Virus record (IMG/VR): IMGVR_UViG_3300037475_000032
Span: 96,766-160,765 of that record
DNA from: a virus
Strand: one strand, 5' to 3'
Length of the DNA stretch: 64,000 nucleotides
Shown: positions 2,169 to 60,490 of the stretch, in pieces
Layout: every line of letters begins with the position of its first letter
Numbering within the stretch: the stretch's first letter is position 1
The notes under the pieces: model-generated
What the model was told of the DNA's origin: nothing
Database searches by the model: none
Seen by the model: the letters and a program-made list of their open reading frames with translations, nothing else
Position numbers and translations under genes: made by a program

Positions 2169-2204
2169 GTATGGCTCCTAGCTGGGAGCAATCAAGGAGA
2201 GTAG

Positions 2205-2471
2205 ATGAGCAGAGTTACCGATCTGATCCATCCAGACGACATCCGCAACGGGCGTGTACGACCGCCCAATCACATTGCGAACGTCGTCCTTACTCGTTCA
2301 CCCGCAAACGAGTACAACTACCTCAAGGAAAACTTCCCTGAGATCATTCCCTTCGTTGCCGAAGGTGAGGATATTCCACAGGATGTCGTGGAGGCCATGC
2401 TAGCCCGCCTTGAGGGCGATGAAAAGGACAACAAAGCCGCTTCAACCCAGTCAGTAAGTAGTGATGGCTAG
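2205..2471 (+). CDS. Hypothetical protein
   Basis: AAGGAG RBS; stop overlaps the portal start. Confidence 0.7.
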   Translation: MSRVTDLIHPDDIRNGRVRPPNHIANVVLTRSPANEYNYLKENFPEIIPFVAEGEDIPQDVVEAMLARLEGDEKDNKAASTQSVSSDG

Positions 2472-5070
2472 CTCAAGCTCACGACTAGACGCAGATCTCG
2501 CAAGGCTACGCCGCAACGGTCTAGTTTACACGCGCCATCCAGCCCGTGCGTCAAGCACGTACGAGGGTGCCGTCAAGGCATCACGCGACATGCACGAAGC
2601 CGCAGGTACGGATCTGCGCAACATGTCTATGCGCCTTGGCCGTCCGATCACGGAGGCTAACTACGACTCTCCTGAGGTGCAGCGCATCATGGGTGAGAAC
2701 AACGCTCTCACTCAGGCGATGGGAAGCAAGCGCATCGCCTACAAGAAGATGCAGCGTCAGTCGTCCTTGGCTCCGTCGTCACCGATGGGCGGCGATGTCT
2801 ACAATGCCATCCCTCGCTTCTACGACCCGCTTGAGTACTGGGACCTAGCAGGTATCCCCTGGAACGTCGCGGACGAGGGACATCGCCACAAGCTCCATAA
2901 GTGGATGCGTCTCTACTACGCGACCCACTACCTTGTCCCAATCCTCATCGACATCTTTACCCGCTTCCCCCTCGTCGGGATGGAACTTGAGTGCAAGGAC
3001 CCGAAGCTCAAGGAGATCTACGAGAACATCTTCCTCGACAACCTCAACTACGAAGACTTCCTCGTTGCCCTTGGGCGCGAGTTCTGGCTTTGTGGTGAGG
3101 CTTTCCCACTCGGCTCCTTTGACGAGGATTTGGGTGTCTGGGAGCACGAGGAGCTTATCAACCCCGAGGACGTTGTAATCAACAACTTTCCGCTGCTCAA
3201 CACGCAGCAGTTGAAGATCGTCCCGCCCGACTATCTCCGCCGCATCGCTCAGACTAAGAGCCCTGCTCGTGAGTGGTACATGCTGCAAGAGAACTACGAG
3301 GAGTTGATCCCGTACCTTCTCAAGGGCGAGCACATCCCGATCTCGCCAGTCATGTTCCGACAGGTCGGCAACAAGCTCAATCACTGGGACGACCACGGCA
3401 CGCCGATTCTCCTTCGCGGTCTCCGCACGCTTCTCCACGAGGAGAAGCTACTAGCATCCCAGGACGCCATTGCCGAGCGTCTGTACAGCCCCTTCTTGCT
3501 CGCCAAGCTCGGCATCATGGACATGGGAGACGGGCTCCCGCCGTGGCTTCCCGGACCTGACGAGCTTGAGTCCGTACGTGACGATTTGGACATCGCTCTG
3601 TCGAGTGACTTCCGCGTCATGGTTCACCACTTCGGCCTTGACCTTACCTCCGTATTCGGGCGCGAGCAGATGCCTCGACTGGGAGACGATTTCGACCGCA
3701 TCGAACGTCGTCTCATGCAGGTGTTTGGCGTTAACCCCTCTCTGCTCTCGGCAGGCACCAACTCACAGCCCTATGCTAGCTCGGCGCTACAAGCCGAGTT
3801 CATGAACCAGATCCTTCGCACGTTCCAGAAGATGCTCAAGTTGCACTTTAAGGAACGTGCTCTTATCGTGGCCGAGGCACAGGGCCACCAGGAATACGAG
3901 CGCAAGGGTCAGACGCGCATCCCGGTCTTCGAGCGCATCGTTGTGTTCGATGAGGAAGGCAATAAGCAGATCAAGGAGGTTCCGAAGCTGCTTGTACCCG
4001 ATCTCAAGTTTGCCACATTCGATCTTCGTGACGAGGCCACAGAGCGTCAGTTCCTCCAGTCACTACGCGGACTCGGAGTCCCGATTCCTGACGACAAGCT
4101 CATGGTCGGCATCGACTGGAAGATGAAGGATGTCATCGAAGACTACAACCAGGAGCTTAAGACCAAGACCATCGCACAGCAGCGAGCCAAGATGGAGACC
4201 TACATTGCACTCACGGTGCAGGGTCTTCCGGTGCCGCTCGACTTGAAGGCAGAGTGCGAGTCCGTCCTTGTCCACGGCGCAGGAGCCGGTGGAGGTGCCC
4301 CACAGGGCGCTATGGAAGGCGGAGGCGGCATGGGCGGAGCACCGCCCCCAGGCGGAGGGGGAGCAGCCCCAGGAGGACCCCCTGGAGGCCCAGGAGGCGG
4401 TCCTGGGGGCTCACCTATCGTTATGCCTGGCGCACCCCCTGGATTGGGCGGAGGACCCGGTACGGTGCCTCCAGGCGGAGGACCGCCCCCAATCACAGGT
4501 ATGCAGCCTGGACCGGCTGGCACAGTACCACAAGTCTCGAACGAGAGACGACCAGGACTTACCTACAACACGAGCACATCTCGTGAGCGATTTGCTCCCA
4601 AGGAGGGAACAGCGCTTGCGGAGTTCATGGGCGAGCACCCGGACTTGGGTGTCCCGTTCACTGACTACGTGACCGACCATAACTCATCCGACCGTGATGC
4701 TGGAGAGATCGATCAGCTTGACCGTGACGAGATCGAGAGACTTCACTCGGAGTGGCCGGAGCACGCAGGCACCTACGCTCAGAGGGTTGCAGGTGAGATT
4801 GCGCAAAGAGTTTCCGCACTTGTAGAGGCAGAGACAAGTGAAGCTGCTATAGTCGCCGACGAGGAGACAGACGATGGTGAATTCGTTCTTGGTGGTAACC
4901 AGGAACTAACAAAGGATGCAAGCGGTAATGAGATCATCGTGGAGTCACCTCACAAGCGTCGAGTGAAGATCGAGGCAGAGTCGAAGAAGCGCTACTCAAT
5001 AGTAGATCCACTAGCCCCTGAACTAGAAGAGGAAACCGACAGTGAATCAGAATCAAAGCCTGCTAGATAA
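2464..5070 (+). CDS. Portal protein with Gly/Pro-rich and acidic C-terminal extension
   Basis: YYATHYLVPILIDIFTRFP, EFWLCGEAFP, GTPILLRGLRTL, LAKLG, VFGVNPSLLSAG...YASSAL resemble portals of large actinobacterial myoviruses. Confidence 0.75.
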   Translation: MASSSSRLDADLARLRRNGLVYTRHPARASSTYEGAVKASRDMHEAAGTDLRNMSMRLGRPITEANYDSPEVQRIMGENNALTQAMGSKRIAYKKMQRQSSLAPSSPMGGDVYNAIPRFYDPLEYWDLAGIPWNVADEGHRHKLHKWMRLYYATHYLVPILIDIFTRFPLVGMELECKDPKLKEIYENIFLDNLNYEDFLVALGREFWLCGEAFPLGSFDEDLGVWEHEELINPEDVVINNFPLLNTQQLKIVPPDYLRRIAQTKSPAREWYMLQENYEELIPYLLKGEHIPISPVMFRQVGNKLNHWDDHGTPILLRGLRTLLHEEKLLASQDAIAERLYSPFLLAKLGIMDMGDGLPPWLPGPDELESVRDDLDIALSSDFRVMVHHFGLDLTSVFGREQMPRLGDDFDRIERRLMQVFGVNPSLLSAGTNSQPYASSALQAEFMNQILRTFQKMLKLHFKERALIVAEAQGHQEYERKGQTRIPVFERIVVFDEEGNKQIKEVPKLLVPDLKFATFDLRDEATERQFLQSLRGLGVPIPDDKLMVGIDWKMKDVIEDYNQELKTKTIAQQRAKMETYIALTVQGLPVPLDLKAECESVLVHGAGAGGGAPQGAMEGGGGMGGAPPPGGGGAAPGGPPGGPGGGPGGSPIVMPGAPPGLGGGPGTVPPGGGPPPITGMQPGPAGTVPQVSNERRPGLTYNTSTSRERFAPKEGTALAEFMGEHPDLGVPFTDYVTDHNSSDRDAGEIDQLDRDEIERLHSEWPEHAGTYAQRVAGEIAQRVSALVEAETSEAAIVADEETDDGEFVLGGNQELTKDASGNEIIVESPHKRRVKIEAESKKRYSIVDPLAPELEEETDSESESKPAR

Positions 5071-8804: not shown

Positions 8805-9278
8805 ATGGCAGCGAAGCTATTCATCCTCGTAGGCGTCCCCGGATGCGGCAAGAGCACATGGGCCAGAAGGGTCCTTGGTGGCGTGCATGTAAGCAGCGAT
8901 GAAATCCGTCAGGAGCTATTCGGAGACGAGTACAACGCCAAGCAGAACCAGCAGGTCTTCGAGCGTTTCTACAAGGAAATCGACAAGTTCCTCCTGACCG
9001 GCATCAACGTCATCGCCGATGCTACCAACCTGAACAGCTTCGCTCGCACTGAGCTACGTCGCATCGCCGACATAGTAGGGTGCGAGACTCACTTGTTCTT
9101 CTTCACCAACGTTGAGCAGGCGCTTCTTCGCAACGCCGAGAGAGACGGGGAGCAGCATGGTTCCAAACGAGTCCCCAACGAGGGCATGACGCTCATGCTG
9201 GAGAAGTACGAACTTGCGAGACGCGATATCCCACTGGAGTCGTACAACTCTGTCACCTACATAGGAAGCGTGTCATGA
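8805..9278 (+). CDS. AAA_33/polynucleotide-kinase-like P-loop kinase
   Basis: GVPGCGKSTW, SSDEIR, DATN, RNAER; leaderless TGC-TATCCT-N6-ATG promoter. Confidence 0.85.
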   Translation: MAAKLFILVGVPGCGKSTWARRVLGGVHVSSDEIRQELFGDEYNAKQNQQVFERFYKEIDKFLLTGINVIADATNLNSFARTELRRIADIVGCETHLFFFTNVEQALLRNAERDGEQHGSKRVPNEGMTLMLEKYELARRDIPLESYNSVTYIGSVS

Positions 9279-26664: not shown

Positions 26665-28617
26665 ATGATTCCCTCTGTAGCAGAAGACATCAACGTGGAG
26701 AGCACCGTGACTGGCGAGAAGATCGCCATGTCGCTGGACGAGAACAGTCTCGCTCACCTCATGACGGTGCTGACCAACCTGTACTCCGACCCCGAGATGG
26801 CGGTACTGCGTGAGTACAGCACGAACGCCCGTGACTCCCACATCGAGGCGGGCACCACGCGGCCCATCGAGGTCACGTTGCCTTCGGTCCTCAATCCCTT
26901 CCTGCACATCAAGGACTTCGGCATCGGCTTGAACGAATCTGACATCGCCGAGATCTACAGCAAGTACGGCGCGAGCACCAAGCGTGAGACCAACGAACAG
27001 ACGGGCGTCCTTGGCCTTGGCTGCAAGAGCGGCCTGACCTACAGCCCACAGTTCTCGCTCGTCGGCATCAAGGAGGGTACACGCACGATGGTCAGCATTG
27101 CGCGTGACGAGGATGGCACGGGCTCGATGACGATTGTCGAAAGCTCGCCCACCGATGAGCCCAACGGCGTCGAGGTCATCATCCCTGTGCGTCGCTACAA
27201 CAACCTCGAAGACAAGTCCCGTGACTTGTTCCGCTTCTGGGAGCCGGGCACAGTGCTCGTCAACGGCGAGGAACCAGAACGCATCGAGGGCACGAAGGTC
27301 TCGGATACCATGCTTATCGCCGAGCGTCTGCACACGGACTACATCGTCATGGGCGGTGTCCCTTACCCCGTGTCGCTCAACACTCCGCTGGCGGGCAAGT
27401 ACAAGCTCGTGGTCTTCGCTGAGATCGGTGATATCAACTTCACGCCTAGCCGCGAGGACTTGCAGCAGACCAAGCGCACAAAGGACTTCATTGCCCTGGC
27501 CCAGGAGCGCTTCGTCTCGCAGGTACAGGGAGCGATTCAGCGTGATATCGATGGTGCTGAAAGCCCTCGTGCCGCCTTCTACACGGCCATCAAATGGCGC
27601 GATGCACTTCCGCACCTCAAGATGGACATGACCTACAAGCAGCAGGAAATCCCGCTGGAGTTCGTTGCTCCCGAAGGCAAGAAGATCGTGGTCAGTAACC
27701 GCAACAGCGATGTGTTGAGCCGACACAGCAAGCACACCACGCTTGCGGCTGGCACGTTCATCAATGGCCTGCTCGTCTACGGCTACAACATGACGAACTT
27801 CACGGCCAGTCACAAGAAGAAGCTCAAGAAGTTCGCGGAAGAAGCGGGCATCAACGCCGAACACTTCATCCTCAGCGAGGACCGCATCGAATCTGTGTGG
27901 CTCGATCCGGCCAGCATGGTGGAGTGGGAGGCCATTCGTGCCATCAAGCTCGACAATCACGGCAGAGCCGGGGGGGCAGGTCGAGTCAAGGGCTCGTACG
28001 ACATGTGGGAGCAAGGCACGTTCCGCAACGAGGTCCCGGCCGAGGAGATCGATGGCGAACTGCCCTTGTTCTACTTCACCACACACGACTTCAAGGTTGT
28101 GGGTCGCAACGCTACTCGCAACGGCGATGCTGTGCGCCTTGTCACCAAGCACTTCCCTGACTGCACAGTGGTCCTCATGGGAGCCAACCGCACATCGAAG
28201 TTCTGCCGCGACTTCCCGAGCGCCAAGTCCATTCAGCAGGTGCTTCGTGAGACCTATGAGAGGATCGCGGACGAAATCGATCCCAAGTACATCAAGGCGT
28301 ACAAGCTGGACGGCGCAAGTTCGTACGGTCGTCCTCTCAGTCGCCTGGACGCTTCGTTGATCGATGACCCCGACCTGGCCGAATCAGTGCGTCTGTCGGA
28401 CATGACGGGTGTCGAAGGCGCAGTAGAACCACTGCGCGAGTTCAGCGGCTTGATGCAATACGTCGGGATATCTGATAGACTCCAGTATGACTTCGAGCAC
28501 GACCCGCTCGACAACTACCCACTGCTATCCAACTGCAACTTCCGTAACGAAGTCCCGTCTCACCTTTACCTATACGTCAACGCCGTCTACGCGGCATCCC
28601 AAGCAGAAAAGGAGTAG
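26665..28617 (+). CDS. rIIA: rIIA-like protein (GHKL ATPase N-terminus)
   Basis: LYSDPEMAVLREYSTNARDSH, KDFGIGL, YGASTKR, GVLGLGCKS, TPSREDL; followed by an rIIB-like gene. Confidence 0.85.
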   Translation: MIPSVAEDINVESTVTGEKIAMSLDENSLAHLMTVLTNLYSDPEMAVLREYSTNARDSHIEAGTTRPIEVTLPSVLNPFLHIKDFGIGLNESDIAEIYSKYGASTKRETNEQTGVLGLGCKSGLTYSPQFSLVGIKEGTRTMVSIARDEDGTGSMTIVESSPTDEPNGVEVIIPVRRYNNLEDKSRDLFRFWEPGTVLVNGEEPERIEGTKVSDTMLIAERLHTDYIVMGGVPYPVSLNTPLAGKYKLVVFAEIGDINFTPSREDLQQTKRTKDFIALAQERFVSQVQGAIQRDIDGAESPRAAFYTAIKWRDALPHLKMDMTYKQQEIPLEFVAPEGKKIVVSNRNSDVLSRHSKHTTLAAGTFINGLLVYGYNMTNFTASHKKKLKKFAEEAGINAEHFILSEDRIESVWLDPASMVEWEAIRAIKLDNHGRAGGAGRVKGSYDMWEQGTFRNEVPAEEIDGELPLFYFTTHDFKVVGRNATRNGDAVRLVTKHFPDCTVVLMGANRTSKFCRDFPSAKSIQQVLRETYERIADEIDPKYIKAYKLDGASSYGRPLSRLDASLIDDPDLAESVRLSDMTGVEGAVEPLREFSGLMQYVGISDRLQYDFEHDPLDNYPLLSNCNFRNEVPSHLYLYVNAVYAASQAEKE

Positions 28618-28624
28618 GACCATC

Positions 28625-29755
28625 ATGGCCCAGACAGCAAGCCCACTCGATCAGAACGCGAAGGTCTTTGCGTTCGTCAAGGCTGCGCTTGAGAGGGGCG
28701 ATGGTCCCTCCGTAGTTGCAGCAGCCGTAGAGGACAAGTACGGCATCACCACGACCAAGGACTCGATCCGCAGGTTCCGTGAGCGTCACGGCATCGCATC
28801 GGTCAAGAAGACCACCAAGGCCACGCCAAAGGCGAAGGCATCAAAGCCCAAGCCCGTGAAGGCCGCCTTCCAATACTCGATCATCGAGCAGGACGGCGAG
28901 CAGTGCATCACGGTCTTCGCTCCTGGCGAGACGCCGAAGGTGGCGGACTCGTCGCACCCCAACTTCTCTACGATGGTGGAGAAGGCCAAGGCGGGCGACA
29001 TCGACGTGCTCGATCTCTTCGACGTGGAGAGGGTCATCCGCGAGAACTTCACACGACTCTCTGAGCGCGTGTTGGTCCGCGACGGCCGTATCTACTTCGA
29101 CGGCAACGAGTTGGACAACGCGATCACAGAGCACATCCTTCGCTTCCTCGATGAAGGTGGCGCAGATGGCGACTGGAGCCCGCTCGTGAACTTCCTGGAG
29201 AAGATCCAGGACAACCCCATCGAGCACTCACGCGAGCAGCTTTACCGCTGGCTCGCATCGCACAAGTTCTCGATCACCCACGAGGGCGACATCGTTGCCT
29301 ACAAGGGTGTGAAGCGCAACAGTGATGAGGACGCGGAGCACGAGTTCCAGAGCGTCTACGGTGGTCACGCCATCGTGGATGAGGTCGAGGTGCATGGCGA
29401 GGTGCCGCAGTCTATCGGCTCCGTCGTGGAAATGCCTCGTACCGAGGTGGCTCACAACCCACGCGAGGCGTGCTCCAGTGGTCTGCACGTCGCCACGTTC
29501 AGCTACGCCAAGGGATGGGGCGAGGTGGTCCTTGAGGTCCACGTCAACCCGCGTGACATCGTGTCCGTGCCAAACGGCGAGGCAGAAAAGGCCCGTACGT
29601 GCCGCTACTACGTCGAGGATGTCGTGACGGCTCCTTACGAGGCCGCCATCGTCCTCGACACCACGCCTGCGCCAGTCCCGGCGCAGGATGACGACGAGTG
29701 CCTGCACTGCGCGTGCTTCGACGCAGGCGACCAGTGCTGCGTGTGCGGTGCGTAA
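28625..29755 (+). CDS. rIIB: rIIB-like protein with extra N-terminal HTH-like domain
   Basis: LVNFLEK...NP...EQLYRWL, ITHEGDIVAYKGV, VEMPR, CSSGLHV, VNPRDIVSVP, KARTCRY. Confidence 0.85.
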   Translation: MAQTASPLDQNAKVFAFVKAALERGDGPSVVAAAVEDKYGITTTKDSIRRFRERHGIASVKKTTKATPKAKASKPKPVKAAFQYSIIEQDGEQCITVFAPGETPKVADSSHPNFSTMVEKAKAGDIDVLDLFDVERVIRENFTRLSERVLVRDGRIYFDGNELDNAITEHILRFLDEGGADGDWSPLVNFLEKIQDNPIEHSREQLYRWLASHKFSITHEGDIVAYKGVKRNSDEDAEHEFQSVYGGHAIVDEVEVHGEVPQSIGSVVEMPRTEVAHNPREACSSGLHVATFSYAKGWGEVVLEVHVNPRDIVSVPNGEAEKARTCRYYVEDVVTAPYEAAIVLDTTPAPVPAQDDDECLHCACFDAGDQCCVCGA

Positions 29756-34173: not shown

Positions 34174-34596
34174 ATGGGATGGGAATGGCTAGGGGGCTTG
34201 TTTGAGGGTGAGGGGCACATTGCTCTGACAGGGCGTAACTCTGTCTCCATCTGCATCAACATGACAGATGAGGACGTGATTCGCAAGGCTCATGAAGTGG
34301 CAGGTGGCATAGTTTCAGGGCCTTACAGTCAAGGAAGACATAAGCCTCTTTGGCGATGGGGAGTCAATCGCTCAGAGGATGTGTTGGTCGTGTTGCAAGA
34401 GATCGAGCCATACCTTGGGGAACGACGCCGAGCCCGTGTTCTGGAAGCATACAAGCGCTTAAAAGGTGTGAGACGCAATGGTTACTGCAAGCGTGGACAT
34501 CCCATGTCGGGGGACAATCTGTACGTGAGCCCAAAGGGCCAGCGTCACTGTCGCACTTGCTCCCGTGACCGCGACCACCGAAGGATCAAGACCTAG
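34174..34596 (+). mobile_element. Free-standing LAGLIDADG-type homing endonuclease with C-terminal Zn finger
   Basis: WLGGLFEGEG; CKRGH...RHCRTC; lower GC than flanks. Confidence 0.75.
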
Positions 34597-34644: not shown

Positions 34645-37600
34645 ATGAATACGCAAGCAAAGACACCAAACGGCTCAGATCGCCTCACAGTGGATGGCTG
34701 GACTGCCGCTACCCCAAGGCGCTGGAAGCATGAGTGGATAGCAGAGAGCCCGCACGAGGCGGGCTCTCAAAATGTCGCTCTAGCTCAAGTATTCAACTCT
34801 TCTCCTGCTAATGCTCTAGCGGCTCATCGTGATCCTTTCGCAGAAGGTCAGGGTTTCCATGTCGCACCACACATAGTATCGCACGAGGGATGGACTGTCA
34901 AGAGCGACGTGCCGAGCGAGCCACCGAACTACAAGCCAGCGGCCAAGCGTTTAAACGCCCCGCACTGCGGCTCATGCAAGATGTACGATCACGGCAAGTG
35001 CTGGGGCTACGGCAACAAGCCCGTGGAGGAGGATTACGTCTGCGACAGCTACTCTCCCTCAGACAATAGTCATCAAGACCAAGCTGACAACCTGCCAAGT
35101 GGCGAGAACGAAGTTGACAGCACGACATCCTCATTTGCAGGGGATTTGGATTGGAAGTTGCCGGTTTTTGACACTTCACCCTCTGAGTCAGGTTGGCGAT
35201 TGGCCGCAAGTCCTGATGAGTTGTTCATCGCACTCAATGTGCCTAAGCCAACAGCCGACAAGATCCACGCTTGGGCCAAGGAACAGGACTGGCCTGAGGG
35301 CACTGAACTAGAGGAGCCAAGCGAGTATCACATCACTCTGCTTTACTCACCGAAGGGACATGAGGAGCACAAGGAGGCGGAGTGGTGGACGACCGATAAC
35401 TCCGACAACGTTGTGGTCAAGAAGCTGGACGAGTTCCCATCCCAAGAGCGTGGTGAGCAGAACGCCTTTGTGCTCCGAGTGGATCGACCCGACGACGAGA
35501 TCAAGATTAGGATGGAAAGGCTACTGGACAAGGCTGAGGAGGAAGGCGTGGAGGTCAACCGCTATCCAGGTGGCAGCAAGCCTCACATCACCATCGCCTA
35601 TGGTCCTAAGCTGCCTAAGGGCATCAAGCCACCTGACATCTCATTCAGCACCGATGAGGCGCACTGCGGTAAGCCAAGGACAAGCTCAGTCGCCAGCGAT
35701 ACGCTTGGCGATCTCGAAGCAGACGTTGGTTCCGGTTGGACCAGTGATGAGTTCGAGGCCCTGATATCCCCAGAGCCCAAGACACATAGCGCCTGGCACG
35801 TAGATGAGGAGGCACAGGAAGCGCACGATCATCTCAACGATGCCGAGCAGCAGTATGATTGGGAGGGCGCAGTATCTCATGACTTTAGGCTAGCAGACTA
35901 CAACGTGCAAGTGCCAGTGGTGACGCCAAACCAAGGTGTCGGGCTCGCAACTCCGCATCAAGTAGGTGACTTGCTCTCAATCCAGAGCGTGGCCCACAAC
36001 TTGCACTACAAGTATCAGCAGAGCGGGCTAGACCCCAACAGCGCACAACAGTATGCCAGTAAGCTGCTCCAAGCGATTGGCTACACGAATCCAGATCAGC
36101 CGACCATAGACGCAGCATTGCAGGCTTGGAAGGCAATGTACCCTGAGGATGCTCGCTCCGCATATGCTCTGCCTGGGGTTGCGACATCAAGTCACGATGC
36201 TGACGGTGGCTTTGGTGACGCTGCCTTGGACTGGACTGATGCTCACACTGCCTCCGCCACTGATGGCGAGGCTGAGAGTCTTGCCCTTCTTGAGTTCAGC
36301 GGCCTGAGTGGGCGTAACAGCGATGTTGCCGGTGATGGCAAGGACGATAGTTTGGGCCATGGCTGGACTCTAGCACACCCCAACCATGATGCCAACCACA
36401 CAAGCAACAAGGACGAACAACAGGCTGGAGTAGAACAGCCTGCGTCTGCCGTCACGGCCGAGCTTGGATGGAATGAGCCCCAGTGCAGTGAGATAGGCGA
36501 GCAGCCAGATCACATAGACCGCCAGAGCAATCATGAAGACCATGATTGGAGAGTAGCAGGTTCGCCCCAGACAATCTTCCAGCCCATCAGGGCGATAGTG
36601 GACCAAGGCGGCCAAGTCCATACGTTCAACGATGGTCATGTCCCGTACTCGCAGTCTAATGGCATCGACCCAAACACGAACCAAGCACATCTCCAGATCC
36701 ATCAGCCTAGCGGAGAGGTGGAGGATTTGTCAGGCGCTCACTCACAGCATGAGCAAACAGTGGCAGACTACTTGAACCAGCAGACAGGGGAAGATCGATA
36801 CCACGCAAGGCCCAATGACATGGATTGGGTGTTCGGGTCGGCGGCAGGCGGCGCTCCTCAAAAATCTCAGAGAGCGTATCAGTCACGAATAGGTGAGGAT
36901 ATGCACGTCCACGAGCCTAAACTACACGCTACAGGAGCCCAAACACTGTCCAACCCCTCCCGTCAGCCTGTCACTCAGGCACGCGCACACGAGAGCGATA
37001 GCCGAGGAGGGTCACCCTCCGATGAGTTGACCAGCTTCCTGTCACACATTCATGAGGGCGATTCATGGGACACGAGACAATGGCCTGATCCATTGAGTGA
37101 CAACGGCACTGGAGGTAATGTGCCTCGTGGTTGCACTTGTCAGTCAGGACACAAGCTCGATTGCCCCGTTCATGGCCTTGAGGCCAATGGTGAATACGAC
37201 ACCATGGAGTGGACTATCCCTGAGGCTTCACCTGTTGGCTATCCACAGGATCAACCGCGCAACTGGCAACAGGCTGAGTCGTCAGTACGTCAGTCAGTAA
37301 GGACTAGGCAAGAGGTTGATGACAATGATGAGCCCAAGCCCAACAGCAAGGCCGACCAAGACAGAGCCAAGCAACGCACCAACCACGGCACAGAAGCCAA
37401 TGAGTATGAGTGGCATCAAGTTCATGCGCCTAGCATAGCACACGACACAAGTCAAGGCGCATCAGCCACACCACTAGCACACACAGCACAGGATGTCAAT
37501 AGCCGTCCGTCCTATAAGGCATTGCTTAGACCTTCGGGCTTAAGACAGTCCATCGAAATCTCAGGAAGTGAAAACGACCTAGAGTGGTACTCAAGTCACG

Positions 37601-40401
37601 ACTCATCTTATGACCTAAGTCACCAGAAGACTTCGGGTCCCATATCTGATGGAACAGGGACGCCAGGCGTGACGGTAGAGGAAGTAGATGCCCCCACTCC
37701 GCTAGCCAACGACGATCCTTGGAACGAGAGCTTCCGTGACCGTCGTCCTTTGCTCTACCATGTGCCGACAGGGAGAGTCCTCATGGGGCCTCCTGGTTCC
37801 GAGCACGGGTCCCTTTACAACCACCTGGGGCGCACTACTCCCGAGTGGCTTCCAGAAGAGGTACACGAAGGCATCATTGGGAAGGGCGGAGTGAAGTTCT
37901 TCGATGACAACTCATCCAATCCCGAAGGCTACCCACAGGCCGCTGCCGATGCGGTCGTTCACCACACAGGGATAGCCGAGGACCCGGAGGTGGACAAGGA
38001 ATACGGCTGGGACTTCAATGGGTCCCATAGGATGGGTGCTCAGGTCATCAATGTGCCCGGCAACGAAGACTTCGATTTCCAAGGAAGGGTCCCGTTGATT
38101 GCGCATGGAGAAAACATCTATGCCGGGACTAACGGAGAGACCCACGATTCGTTGAAGGCCAGGCTCGGAGACAGGCTCCAGGGCGTTCATCCCAACGACA
38201 TCGCTCATGGCGGCATGTTCGTGGACCACAACGCCTCTGAATACGGGATCACTCCGGGATCTTATGAGTGGTTCGATACGAACTTCTTCCAGCCCGGTTC
38301 TCCACACAATCAAGCCGTCGAGGATGAGATCAGGCGAAGGGGCCTGGAGCCCAAGAACCTGGATGACGGATTCACCTTCTCCAAGGTTGCGGCCGTGCCT
38401 GTCCAGTACCACGGGGACATCGATCCATCCGAAGGATATCCTGGATGGGAGGATGGGGATATGTTCGGGGACCCCATTGGATACGCGGGTCGCTGGCCGA
38501 CAGTGGTCCATGACGGCACAGTGCATATCGGGCCTGAACAGTCCACTCATGGACAAGTCAGGCAGAAACTAGGCTTGCCTGCCACTGGCGAGGAGCCCGA
38601 AGGCTGGATCGGACCAAACCCTGAGGCCGAAGAAGACAACCACGATCACGAGGGCGTCGAATTCCTGCCAGGCGAACCCGAGGACGGAGAGGGAGCCCCA
38701 TACGGCTGGTACGGGCACAAGGGCGTGCCTCATCAAAACACAGGCATTACCGAAGCCATGATGAACTACTGGAACACGTTCTTGAGGCATCGAGAGCCTA
38801 CGCCCGGAACCGGCTATGGTCATGGGCCACGCATGTCAGGAGTCAGCGTCCATGAAGTCGGGGAGCCCACAGATAGCGGAACTGAGTGGCACGGGACCCG
38901 TCGTCCTTTCACCTACTTCCCCCACACTCAGGATTTGATCCTTGGGGCACCCGGAGCCGACCATGCAGCGATGCTCTACGCGGACAAGAGGCTCTTTCAG
39001 AAGTACAGGCGACAGCAGCTAGAGCCCGACACGGCGCAGGGCGGCGTCTACAATGACCCGGAGGGCAACAAGGTCGTGGAGTACTACTACGGGACGCCCG
39101 AGGATGAGCATGTCCAGGCCGTTCAGAACGCCCTTGGGGCACAAAGGTCACAGCTAAACGAGTGGCATGTCGGCGATGATGTTCACGACAACCCCGACAA
39201 GACCTGGGACTTCAACTCCAAGATCGCTCAGACAATGTACCACTGGGCTCCGAGGGCAATGCGCGACCAGATCTCCCAACAGGGTCTTAGGGCCGCGTTG
39301 CCTGAGGGTGATGAGTACGTGGACTATGACAACCCAGATGCCTACAAGGGCGTCTACTTGTTCAATCGTGTTCCTGCCTACACACCAGGAGGCTCCAAGG
39401 GCTTCTACGGGGATGATTTGTGGGCCGTGGACACCCATGGCTTGAATCCACAAGTAGATGAGGGCGAGTGGGACGCTTCCATGATTCCTCACGACATCAC
39501 TCCCGATAGGATTCAGTTCCTCAACTCACCAGCACATCGCAAGGCATGGGAACAGCAGGAAGAGGAGCGCTACGGAAAGGCTCCCAGAACGTCACAGGAG
39601 GGTCCTACAGGCGATGAATTGCAGAACATAGAGGATTCACAGCCTCAAGAGCGTCAGGGCCTTATACCGCTCTCCTGGGAGCCCGGATTGCACGGCAAGG
39701 GCTTGTACTTCCCCGAGGCCGACAAGCTCACCACCTGGAGTGATCCACGACACCACTCAGATGTCTGGTACGACGATGAGCACTACCCACTCCCCGGCGT
39801 AGCTCACCACCTGGATATTCAGCCTAACGGCCAGTACGTGGATCAGGGCGGCTTCAACCGAGAGATGGAAGACAACAACGAAGGTCTGGACGAAGTTGAC
39901 CTTGCTCAGGCCCTCAAGCGTCACGATCCGAGGCTCACTGACCGTGATCCTGGACACGAGTGGTCATTTGCCAAGGTTGCGCACGCACTCGGCTGGCAGC
40001 CGGGAGAACACGGAAAGGGACTTATCCACGACGGAGAAGTTCATACCTGGGGAGTCGGGGACGATCCAGACGGCCAGCCTACGCATCCCGAATATGCACA
40101 GCAGAACTTCAACATGAACGAAGGTCAGTACGCGAATCACCAGATGTTCGAGTCGGCCTTCCAAATGGACCCCAAGGGCAACGTCAACATCTACGAGGAT
40201 CATCCCGATACCATCAACCAGGTTGCTCAGGCCGTGGAGTCAGCCGACCCGAGACTGAAAGCCAATGTGCTCCATGACTACGACTGGGACTTTGGGAACG
40301 TAGAGCCTATGAAGACAGAGCCCGACATGGACGAACACGGCAACCTACATGGCGTGCAGTTCACCAACGATGAGCCCGGAGTCTCTACAGTCGATGCGTG
40401 A
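34645..40401 (+). CDS. 1918-aa polyprotein: 4-Cys domain, Acb1-like 2H phosphoesterase, ~7 repeat modules, ART/Tpt1-like domain
   Basis: HITLLYS and HITIAY 2H motifs; MYHWAP...ISQQGL...GVYLF; linkers RLA/RTS/RVA/KTS/RMG/KVA/RMS/KIA, often preceded by W-x-F. Confidence 0.75.
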   Translation: MNTQAKTPNGSDRLTVDGWTAATPRRWKHEWIAESPHEAGSQNVALAQVFNSSPANALAAHRDPFAEGQGFHVAPHIVSHEGWTVKSDVPSEPPNYKPAAKRLNAPHCGSCKMYDHGKCWGYGNKPVEEDYVCDSYSPSDNSHQDQADNLPSGENEVDSTTSSFAGDLDWKLPVFDTSPSESGWRLAASPDELFIALNVPKPTADKIHAWAKEQDWPEGTELEEPSEYHITLLYSPKGHEEHKEAEWWTTDNSDNVVVKKLDEFPSQERGEQNAFVLRVDRPDDEIKIRMERLLDKAEEEGVEVNRYPGGSKPHITIAYGPKLPKGIKPPDISFSTDEAHCGKPRTSSVASDTLGDLEADVGSGWTSDEFEALISPEPKTHSAWHVDEEAQEAHDHLNDAEQQYDWEGAVSHDFRLADYNVQVPVVTPNQGVGLATPHQVGDLLSIQSVAHNLHYKYQQSGLDPNSAQQYASKLLQAIGYTNPDQPTIDAALQAWKAMYPEDARSAYALPGVATSSHDADGGFGDAALDWTDAHTASATDGEAESLALLEFSGLSGRNSDVAGDGKDDSLGHGWTLAHPNHDANHTSNKDEQQAGVEQPASAVTAELGWNEPQCSEIGEQPDHIDRQSNHEDHDWRVAGSPQTIFQPIRAIVDQGGQVHTFNDGHVPYSQSNGIDPNTNQAHLQIHQPSGEVEDLSGAHSQHEQTVADYLNQQTGEDRYHARPNDMDWVFGSAAGGAPQKSQRAYQSRIGEDMHVHEPKLHATGAQTLSNPSRQPVTQARAHESDSRGGSPSDELTSFLSHIHEGDSWDTRQWPDPLSDNGTGGNVPRGCTCQSGHKLDCPVHGLEANGEYDTMEWTIPEASPVGYPQDQPRNWQQAESSVRQSVRTRQEVDDNDEPKPNSKADQDRAKQRTNHGTEANEYEWHQVHAPSIAHDTSQGASATPLAHTAQDVNSRPSYKALLRPSGLRQSIEISGSENDLEWYSSHDSSYDLSHQKTSGPISDGTGTPGVTVEEVDAPTPLANDDPWNESFRDRRPLLYHVPTGRVLMGPPGSEHGSLYNHLGRTTPEWLPEEVHEGIIGKGGVKFFDDNSSNPEGYPQAAADAVVHHTGIAEDPEVDKEYGWDFNGSHRMGAQVINVPGNEDFDFQGRVPLIAHGENIYAGTNGETHDSLKARLGDRLQGVHPNDIAHGGMFVDHNASEYGITPGSYEWFDTNFFQPGSPHNQAVEDEIRRRGLEPKNLDDGFTFSKVAAVPVQYHGDIDPSEGYPGWEDGDMFGDPIGYAGRWPTVVHDGTVHIGPEQSTHGQVRQKLGLPATGEEPEGWIGPNPEAEEDNHDHEGVEFLPGEPEDGEGAPYGWYGHKGVPHQNTGITEAMMNYWNTFLRHREPTPGTGYGHGPRMSGVSVHEVGEPTDSGTEWHGTRRPFTYFPHTQDLILGAPGADHAAMLYADKRLFQKYRRQQLEPDTAQGGVYNDPEGNKVVEYYYGTPEDEHVQAVQNALGAQRSQLNEWHVGDDVHDNPDKTWDFNSKIAQTMYHWAPRAMRDQISQQGLRAALPEGDEYVDYDNPDAYKGVYLFNRVPAYTPGGSKGFYGDDLWAVDTHGLNPQVDEGEWDASMIPHDITPDRIQFLNSPAHRKAWEQQEEERYGKAPRTSQEGPTGDELQNIEDSQPQERQGLIPLSWEPGLHGKGLYFPEADKLTTWSDPRHHSDVWYDDEHYPLPGVAHHLDIQPNGQYVDQGGFNREMEDNNEGLDEVDLAQALKRHDPRLTDRDPGHEWSFAKVAHALGWQPGEHGKGLIHDGEVHTWGVGDDPDGQPTHPEYAQQNFNMNEGQYANHQMFESAFQMDPKGNVNIYEDHPDTINQVAQAVESADPRLKANVLHDYDWDFGNVEPMKTEPDMDEHGNLHGVQFTNDEPGVSTVDA
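35686..35880 (-). CDS. Nested antisense membrane peptide 1 (64 aa)
   Basis: TGC-TAGCCT-N6-ATG; MRYCALPIILLLGIVEMIVRFLCLLIYVPGAMCLGLWG... Confidence 0.6.
   Translation of the reverse strand: MRYCALPIILLLGIVEMIVRFLCLLIYVPGAMCLGLWGYQGLELITGPTGTNVCFEIAKRIAGD
36187..36360 (-). CDS. Nested antisense small beta-rich protein 2 (57 aa)
   Basis: TGC-TAGAGT-N6-ATG; MAQTIVLAITGNIAVTPTQAAELKKGKTLSLAISGGGSVSISPVQGSVTKATVSIVT. Confidence 0.6.
   Translation of the reverse strand: MAQTIVLAITGNIAVTPTQAAELKKGKTLSLAISGGGSVSISPVQGSVTKATVSIVT
36370..36543 (-). CDS. Nested antisense two-TM peptide 3 (57 aa)
   Basis: TGC-TACTCT-N6-ATG; MVFMIALAVYVIWLLAYLTALGLI-PSKLGRDGRRR-LFYSSLLFVLVACVVGIMVGVC, with a positive-inside loop. 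Confidence 0.65.
   Translation of the reverse strand: MVFMIALAVYVIWLLAYLTALGLIPSKLGRDGRRRLFYSSLLFVLVACVVGIMVGVC
37294..37425 (-). CDS. Nested antisense membrane peptide 4 (43 aa)
   Basis: TGC-TATGCT-N6-ATG; MNLMPLILIGFCAVVGALLGSVLVGLAVGLGLIIVINLLPSPY. Confidence 0.6.
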   Translation of the reverse strand: MNLMPLILIGFCAVVGALLGSVLVGLAVGLGLIIVINLLPSPY

Positions 40402-45380: not shown

Positions 45381-45825
45381 ATGATTGTTTTGATTGCAGT
45401 TGCAGCCGTAGTTGTGGTGGTCCTCGTGCTATCGTTGTGCGTCACGGCCAAGAGAGCAGACGAGCAGTCCGCTCGATTCTTTAGGAGCCTACGTGGCAAC
45501 GCTAGTCAACGATCCGACCGCTAACTGGCCGATCTCTCCGGGAGAGGAGGCTATCCCCGGAACTATCATCGGGCAGATCCTCGATCCCGAGTCCGAGGAG
45601 GGGAAGGCCGCTATCCGTATCAACGAGCTTGGCCTGTGCCACAAGTGCGGCATCCGCAAGGGCACGGGCGAGTGGGGCAACTCCCTGTCGATCTCCCATG
45701 GCTGGACGACTCCACGCTGCGACACCTGCACCTACGGAGCTATGCTGGATCACGCCTGGGGCAGAGCCAAGGCCCTTCCATCGCTGGCCTACAAGTACGC
45801 CCTTGCAAGATTCTTCCACACGTAG
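45381..45825 (+). CDS. Small TM protein (45381-45524) and Zn-finger protein (45493-45825)
   Basis: TGC-TAGCGT-N6-ATG; AGGAG before GTG 45493; CHKC/CDTC. Confidence 0.55.
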
Positions 45826-60394: not shown

Positions 60395-60490
60395 CCGTTC
60401 TCCTTGCCGTGTGATTTGTCTCGATGACTCTAGCAAAGCACCACGGGCACTTCAAGAGTCATATCTGGTTGGGGACCATCATAGCACGGC

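Follow-up and report, generated by a model that had tools for sequence, protein, structure and literature searches.

Putative leaderless antisense mini-genes embedded in the linkers of a giant modular phage gene

Small genes entirely contained within a larger opposite-strand gene have been published before. In Shigella flexneri 2a and enteroaggregative Escherichia coli, pic (she) and set1B overlap on opposite strands with set1B contained within pic, and one promoter is common to set1A and set1B, the ShET1 genes (PMC3626585). A related arrangement was found in a 64,000-nucleotide stretch of viral DNA (hereafter the window; positions 96,766 to 160,765 of IMG/VR record IMGVR_UViG_3300037475_000032), the final part of a 160,765-bp phage genome assembled from soil. 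Within the window, four short minus-strand open reading frames (ORFs), here named genes A to D, lie inside a giant modular plus-strand gene at 34645-40401. Both cases consist of small opposite-strand genes wholly inside a large gene and served by their own promoter. The set1B/set1A pair is a two-gene operon at one chromosomal locus, whereas the phage carries four separately promoted, putatively leaderless mini-genes, one to each linker, in a layout that recurs with exchangeable cassettes across a lineage of giant genes. This combination, together with the apparent descent of at least one embedded gene from a free-standing family, is what seems to be new.

Antisense overlapping genes have also been proposed in enterohaemorrhagic E. 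coli (EHEC) O157:H7 (PMC9927249) and, as olg1 and olg2, in Pseudomonas aeruginosa (PMC8850804). Those genes are likewise embedded in annotated genes, and the case for them draws on purifying selection and on expression signals of their own. They are mostly lineage-restricted and presumed to have arisen de novo by overprinting, with RNA sequencing and ribosome profiling behind them, whereas the phage genes are known from sequence alone and gene A, with its many free-standing homologues, would be a pre-existing gene that became embedded. HIV-1 also has a viral antisense ORF over a large gene, that of the antisense protein ASP; this is a single ORF of a eukaryotic retrovirus, thought to have arisen de novo and not placed in linkers. 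ASP is a hydrophobic membrane protein. Its ORF overlaps env (PMC8781085, PMC8156140). In the placement of the -10 relative to the ATG, the phage genes share the layout of actinobacterial leaderless genes; here it is phage-borne, has a fixed extended -10 (TGC) and a spacer of exactly six nucleotides (N6), and lies antisense inside coding sequence. The actinobacterial genes reportedly carry a TANNNT -10 a few nucleotides before the ATG and have no Shine-Dalgarno sequence. Leaderless transcripts and small proteins have been described in mycobacteria (Shell et al., 2015; PMC4633059).

It is a matter of continuing dispute whether protein is truly encoded by long antisense overlaps in phages and prokaryotes, which gene callers are designed to exclude. 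The present locus appears to be an unusually well-supported case of this contested kind. That both strands are read is argued by three independent lines: amino acid constraint on the minus frame, free-standing homologues of one gene, and avoidance of codons that would stop the host frame.

The four ORFs are probably real, independently transcribed, leaderless protein-coding genes that run antisense, codon for codon in register, within the linkers of the giant gene. A sequence-only reading of the window had proposed four promoter-bearing antisense genes nested in this gene, and the ORFs were found where it placed them, all within 34645-40401 on the opposite strand and in codon-complementary register (register 0). 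Each ATG lay exactly 6 nt past TGCTANNNT, the -10 hexamers being TAGCCT, TAGAGT, TACTCT and TATGCT. The features of the locus were as follows:

34645-40401, plus strand: giant modular gene, 1918 amino acids, with repeated modules of about 100 amino acids; host of the four antisense genes
35686-35880, minus strand: gene C, 64 amino acids, hydrophobic, apparently with two membrane segments; occupies the linker that joins the 2H domain to the ADYNVQ module
35887-35895, minus strand: putative extended -10 of gene C, TGCTAGCCT, 6 nt before the ATG; the plus strand reads R-L-A
36187-36360, minus strand: gene B, 57 amino acids, not hydrophobic, rich in T, S, V and G
36367-36375, minus strand: putative extended -10 of gene B, TGCTAGAGT; its TAG doubles as the stop codon of the upstream gene D
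36390-36395, minus strand: -35-like hexamer TTGGCA of gene B, from a consensus promoter scan (TTGGCA, 17 nt, TAGAGT, with TG)
36370-36543, minus strand: gene D, 57 amino acids, an arginine-rich loop joining two hydrophobic segments; starts at an internal ATG of a 110-amino-acid ORF
36550-36558, minus strand: putative extended -10 of gene D, TGCTACTCT; the plus strand reads R-V-A
37294-37425, minus strand: gene A, predicted 43-amino-acid membrane peptide, one of a widespread small-protein family of phages; starts at an internal ATG of a 53-amino-acid ORF that opens with TTG
37432-37440, minus strand: putative extended -10 of gene A, TGCTATGCT; the plus strand reads S-I-A

The best 19-residue hydropathy was 2.6-2.8 in peptides C, D and A. 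The prediction of three transmembrane peptides thus agreed with the strong hydrophobicity of these three; the fourth, B, was non-hydrophobic (1.16). Pfam and PHROG scans of the four peptides returned nothing significant. A fifth antisense gene, hinted at by a sliding scan at 37440-37700, was rejected because that interval held no ORF of useful length. Translation of the plus strand at the four promoters gave HDFRLA, HGWTLA, HDWRVA and HAPSIA, as had been read, from the codons AGG-CTA-GCA, ACT-CTA-GCA, AGA-GTA-GCA and AGC-ATA-GCA. The shared pattern, H-x-x-[R/T/S/K]-[L/V/I]-A, is no more than what the DNA motif must yield on translation, and it fits the [KR]-[ILV]-A that opens other modules. 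While promoter-bearing antisense genes in the linkers stood up, nothing in the analysis showed that the boundary motif also serves as a protease site or that the giant protein is processed.

The motif was rare in the genome and tied to gene starts. The string TGCTANNNT-N6-ATG occurred at nine strict sites on the two strands of the 160,765 bp, of which four were the antisense sites in the giant ORF, and an ATG stood at N6 after 9 of the 34 TGCTANNNT sites of the genome, against about 0.5 expected. In synonymous-codon shuffles of the giant gene, the control that the sequence-only reading had called for, 0.07 antisense sites appeared, compared with the four observed. The other five strict sites opened ORFs of 157, 104, 47 and 157 amino acids and one dubious ORF of 13 amino acids; the motif said to precede ordinary genes at 8805, 22768 and 45381 was present there. 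The variant TG[A/G/T]TANNNT-N6-ATG was found at five sites, each opening an ORF of 68-280 amino acids. Three called genes on L013, a 100-kb contig of an unrelated phage, began exactly at TGCTATACT-N6-ATG. All four antisense genes had the sequence layout expected of a leaderless gene: a TANNNT -10 with an extended TGN about 6-7 nt before the start codon, and no ribosome-binding site. Canonical promoters elsewhere in the genome used TGCTANNNT as their -10, TTGAAG lying 16-17 nt before it. Sites composed of cTTGAAG, 16-17 nt (including the TGC) and TANNNT were located at window position 60435 (minus strand) and at genome positions 20090 (minus), 68326 (minus) and 78405 (plus); these appear to be the leadered sigma-70-type promoter class of the phage. 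At 45381-45524 on the plus strand, a free-standing 47-amino-acid single-pass membrane peptide began at TGCTAGCGT-N6-ATG in a divergent intergenic region, as an ordinary counterpart of the nested genes.

The layout was conserved in relatives. The comparison set comprised six homologous giant genes from other metagenome samples (36-77% identity, GC content 50-57%) plus the window; individual loci are cited by handle (L001 onward). In an alignment of the homologues, conserved modules alternated with highly variable linkers rich in indels; modules had been gained, lost or moved, and the positions of the antisense ORFs coincided with the variable linkers. Each of the six relatives carried one to three strict antisense sites, which with the four of the window made 19 sites in seven genes. 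All 19 were in register 0 and were followed by an ORF of 43-94 amino acids, and the sense strand of these genes held none. Synonymous-codon shuffles of the seven genes yielded 0.47 strict antisense sites in total. Among the antisense TGCTANNNT sites, 19 of 26 had the ATG exactly at N6, and a C preceded the ATG in 17 of these 19, which makes the customary pyrimidine-purine dinucleotide of a transcription start. ORFs following the motif ATGs were longer than those following other in-register antisense ATGs (median 59 versus 32 amino acids, p=5e-4). Under relaxed motif rules, further hydrophobic ORFs were found in L004, L005 and L007.

Promoter positions were retained selectively. Between the window and L007, all defined positions of the gene A promoter were kept while the N positions had changed at 2 of 3 and 4 of 6. 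The 18-mer at the gene C promoter was identical in L002 and L003, and in L007 its defined positions were kept and its N positions differed. The codons that the motif imposes on the plus strand are minority choices within their families (CAT about 31%, NTA 5-13%, GCA about 19%), yet all 19 sites used them. The start of the AQTMYHW module offered a direct comparison: in the window, where no cassette abuts, it was preceded by AAG ATC GCT (K-I-A) and no promoter, whereas next to cassette B, in L002 and L003, it was preceded by CAT GAG CCA AGG GTA GCA (R-V-A), that is, promoter plus ATG. A [KR]-[ILV]-A boundary therefore needs little beyond codon choice to become a -10. In L001, the linker and cassette C were missing together and only the -10, TGCTAGCTT, was left (L001:2370-2390, giant protein residues 454-459), apparently a remnant of an antisense gene that was deleted.

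Selection on the two frames was assessed in the relatives. Outside the cassettes, differences at plus-strand codon positions 1:2:3 fell at about 1:0.8:2. In cassettes A (37294-37425) and B (36187-36360), substitutions were instead concentrated on the third codon position of the minus frame. Between L001 and L002, the counts at plus positions 1:2:3 were 22:4:3 in cassettes A and B combined versus 274:221:527 outside (Fisher p=7e-8); between L001 and L003 they were 28:6:10 versus 324:281:596 (Fisher p=3e-6). A sliding scan of the whole gene placed the strongest reversed signal exactly on 36187-36360 and another on 37294-37425, and conserved modules kept the plus-coding pattern up to the cassette edges. 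For most pairs, the ratio of nonsynonymous to synonymous substitution rates (dN/dS) was 0.05-0.4 in the minus frame and 0.5-1.7 in the plus frame; for gene B the minus-frame value was 0.12-0.30 in most pairs. Purifying selection on the minus frame, which had been named as a check, was thus seen for A and B; for C the signal was weak and came from one distant pair, and on the branch leading to the window it was not seen. Codons that would put a stop in the plus frame (CTA, TTA and TCA) were absent from the cassettes, whose leucine and serine content predicted 32.9 of them, so the plus frame is also kept open. A codon-usage likelihood was tried as a test of strand and failed to discriminate the strands inside the cassettes.

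The four peptides differed in their relatives. Homologues of gene A were nested in L001, L002, L003, L007 and L008, and a profile search with family A recovered 24 small metagenome proteins with the core motif LIAFCAVVGALLGSVLIGLAVGLG (E 7e-26 to 1.5e-3); one example, P0027, was 84% identical over 72% of the query. In the six loci inspected (L009/L010, L011, L012/L013, L014 and L015), family A members were ordinary same-strand genes with no giant antisense ORF. Their neighbours were SSB, RecA or an Acb2/Tad1-like gene, on contigs of 58-75% GC. The in-register antisense translation of the free-standing genes was stop-free in four of five and very hydrophilic, which explains how such a gene can sit in a linker. 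Gene A is thus best read as a pre-existing small phage protein, predicted to be a membrane protein, that became embedded, and a de novo origin of family A was rejected because free-standing homologues exist. Read-through across convergent genes, proposed as the origin of the arrangement, is compatible with a pre-existing family A and is indistinguishable here from insertion into a linker.

Free-standing homologues of all four peptides had been suggested as a check; they were found for A, and for B there was none. Gene B was 81-84% identical in L001, L002, L003 and L008, and it may have arisen de novo. Beta-repeat proteins (Big_9, InlB B-repeat) that matched the B profile were heterogeneous and were read as compositional rather than homologous, and an Atlas look-up of B scored 0.81, which is chance level. 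Gene C had a homologue in L007 (43% identical, E=4e-10). L002 and L003 carried unrelated hydrophobic peptides at the gene C promoter site between the same conserved flanks, which points to cassette exchange. Gene D showed weak full-length similarity to two-segment hairpin cassettes of L007 and L004 (E about 0.01-0.02) and a weak PHROG match (E=0.012); its Atlas score of 0.88, to generic proteins of about 60 amino acids, is a lead only. A tblastn search of peptides A, C and D against isolated phages found nothing, and low-complexity filtering probably limits its sensitivity.

A mechanism consistent with these results can be outlined. Each gene would have its own sigma-70/sigma-A-type extended -10 (TGC-TANNNT), and transcription would start on the A of the ATG, usually after a C, which would make a ribosome-binding site unnecessary. 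Three of the genes would yield small peptides predicted to insert into the membrane; the product of gene B would be small and soluble. Because codons for hydrophobic residues are complementary to codons for hydrophilic ones (GTC/GAC, CTC/GAG, ATC/GAT), a membrane mini-gene would be read from the plus strand as an acidic polar stretch, tolerable as a linker in a multi-module protein. The suggested rule for tolerated overlaps is that a hydrophobic peptide on one strand is a hydrophilic linker on the other. Selection would keep both frames open, with amino acid constraint in cassettes A and B falling on the minus frame only. Each -10 coincides with the [K/R/T/S]-[L/V/I]-A at the start of the following plus-strand module, so that making it is mainly a matter of codon choice (NTA, GCA). 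Host RNA polymerase may express the mini-genes ahead of the giant gene, and mutual control by the sense and antisense RNAs would be possible. By analogy of function only, small hydrophobic peptides paired with a complementary giant mRNA resemble a type I toxin-antitoxin system. More tentatively, the interdomain linkers of giant modular phage proteins in general may be docking sites for leaderless antisense mini-genes that are exchanged as cassettes without breaking the protein, the complementary mRNAs giving an early/late switch, with the membrane peptides made early and the giant gene expressed late; this wider scheme is possible rather than probable. The locus points to a putative class of small early membrane proteins that go unrecorded in phage annotation.

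Several observations weigh against protein coding by the minus strand. Along the window's branch, the counts of substitutions in A and B at minus positions 1:2:3 were 12:4:4, which is not a minus-coding pattern, with many swaps among hydrophobic residues, and for the window and L001 the minus frame showed no reduction in dN/dS relative to the plus frame. Constraint on the window's copies is therefore inferred from the relatives and from the intact promoters, ATGs and frames. Codon usage in the cassettes scored about zero, midway between the sense and antisense nulls. Gene D was present in the window only and had no comparative support. Gene B had no free-standing homologue, and a profile search of 1.84 billion representatives recovered its own nested copy only; its AlphaFold model was of low confidence (predicted local distance difference test score 60.6) and uninformative. 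The 19 sites share ancestry and so are not independent, representing about 9-12 distinct cassettes. TTGNNN stood at 17 nt in some antisense sites, and a canonical -35 was present at a subset of the sites only. No intrinsic terminators were found in the region.

Three other accounts of the locus bear on these points. The antisense promoters may be real and their product a regulatory RNA that holds the giant gene in check through RNA duplexes or transcriptional interference, with the peptides incidental. Such transcripts would be fully complementary to the giant mRNA, and the complete difference of the site C cassettes between phages looks as though their sequence mattered little; the lack of a conserved peptide in gene D and the window-branch substitutions would also suit a non-coding product. 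An RNA by itself, however, leaves unaccounted for the exact N6 placement of an ATG at 19 of 26 antisense TGCTANNNT sites, ORFs that are always at least 43 amino acids long, the amino acid constraint on the minus frame in A and B, and the membership of A in a family of free-standing protein genes. This account is considered unlikely, and it could hold alongside protein coding by the same ORFs. A role confined to the plus strand is less credible still: the motif and the open antisense frames would be by-products of a recurring boundary peptide and GC-rich codons, with a non-functional minus strand. The in-register antisense frame of GC-rich genes is indeed often open (median stop-to-stop length 21-30 codons, maximum 242), the peptide [KR]-[ILV]-A does recur in the giant protein, and the codon-usage score is ambiguous. 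Minority codons (CAT, NTA, GCA) at 19 of 19 sites, the shortfall of sites in synonymous shuffles (0.47 versus 19), the reversed codon-position pattern within cassettes and the free-standing homologues of A nevertheless leave it strongly disfavoured and hardly credible.

The remaining account denies that the 1918-codon frame is one protein: the plus-strand modules would be separate genes, the linkers minus-strand genes between them, and continuity of the plus frame incidental. In its favour, modules are shuffled, gained and lost among the relatives, and in L001 cassette C was deleted along with its linker. It is nonetheless very improbable, given that no stop breaks the plus frame in seven full-length assemblies (5.7-7.9 kb) or in an 857-codon fragment, that stop-generating codons are absent from the cassettes where 32.9 are expected, that all cassettes are in register 0, and that conserved modules show the plus-coding pattern right up to the cassettes. 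Leaderless antisense protein-coding genes within the linkers of a single giant gene remain the preferred interpretation.

The giant gene itself belongs to a small metagenomic family. Eight homologues of 1427-2630 amino acids were found in metagenomes, and in all six fetched loci a tail 'Collar' gene preceded the giant gene. Residues 193-322 of the window protein contained a weak 2H-phosphoesterase/Acb1-like domain (Pfam Acb1, E=2.9e-4, below the curated cut-off; PHROG RNA ligase, E=8.7e-5). Two relatives were named by the Joint Genome Institute (JGI) as 2'-5' RNA ligase plus GNAT, and most modules were unnamed. One module, 82% identical, occurred at window positions 39220-39579 (residues 1526-1645) and at residues 590-709 of the L002 giant protein; its very different position in the two proteins indicates module shuffling within the gene family. 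With polyvalent proteins (Iyer et al., 2017; PMC5512222), the giant gene shares a multi-module phage form, a 2H/Acb1-like domain, GNAT in some relatives and free module shuffling. Those proteins are recognised by several unrelated enzymatic or anti-defence domains, of which the window protein, a candidate member of the class, gave a single weak call (Acb1/2H, below the Pfam cut-off), and the word 'antisense' is absent from that paper (PMC5512222). Searches of isolated phages with the giant gene by megablast or tblastn gave no matches, the giant protein and peptides A, C and D had no confirmed relatives in IMG/VR scans, and no Rfam families were detected in the region.

The phage is distantly related to actinobacteriophages. 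Its portal protein was about 40% identical to those of cluster-C mycobacteriophage myoviruses, a distant relationship, and RIIA-like and RIIB-like genes were present at 26665-29755 (plus strand), besides which the phage encoded tail fibres and a CCA-adding enzyme. An HNH endonuclease gene at 34174-34596 (plus strand) separated the giant gene from the tail 'Collar' gene. It is probably a mobile insertion, because the gap between 'Collar' and the giant gene in L002-L005 was only about 40-50 nt and no HNH gene was called in the six loci. The database copy of the giant protein (P0002) was 1792 amino acids, or 93% of the 1918-amino-acid ORF, which implies a later start (window 34645-35022 being left out). 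The longer form is favoured, since the N-terminus from the first ATG (MNTQ/MNTP...) was conserved in L002-L005. On L013, positions 2203-2712 (plus strand) encoded a free-standing 169-amino-acid protein with a YHITLMYSP motif, resembling the 2H-phosphoesterase module of the giant protein and starting at TGCTATACT-N6-ATG; the module thus also occurs as a separate, apparently leaderless gene in another phage lineage.

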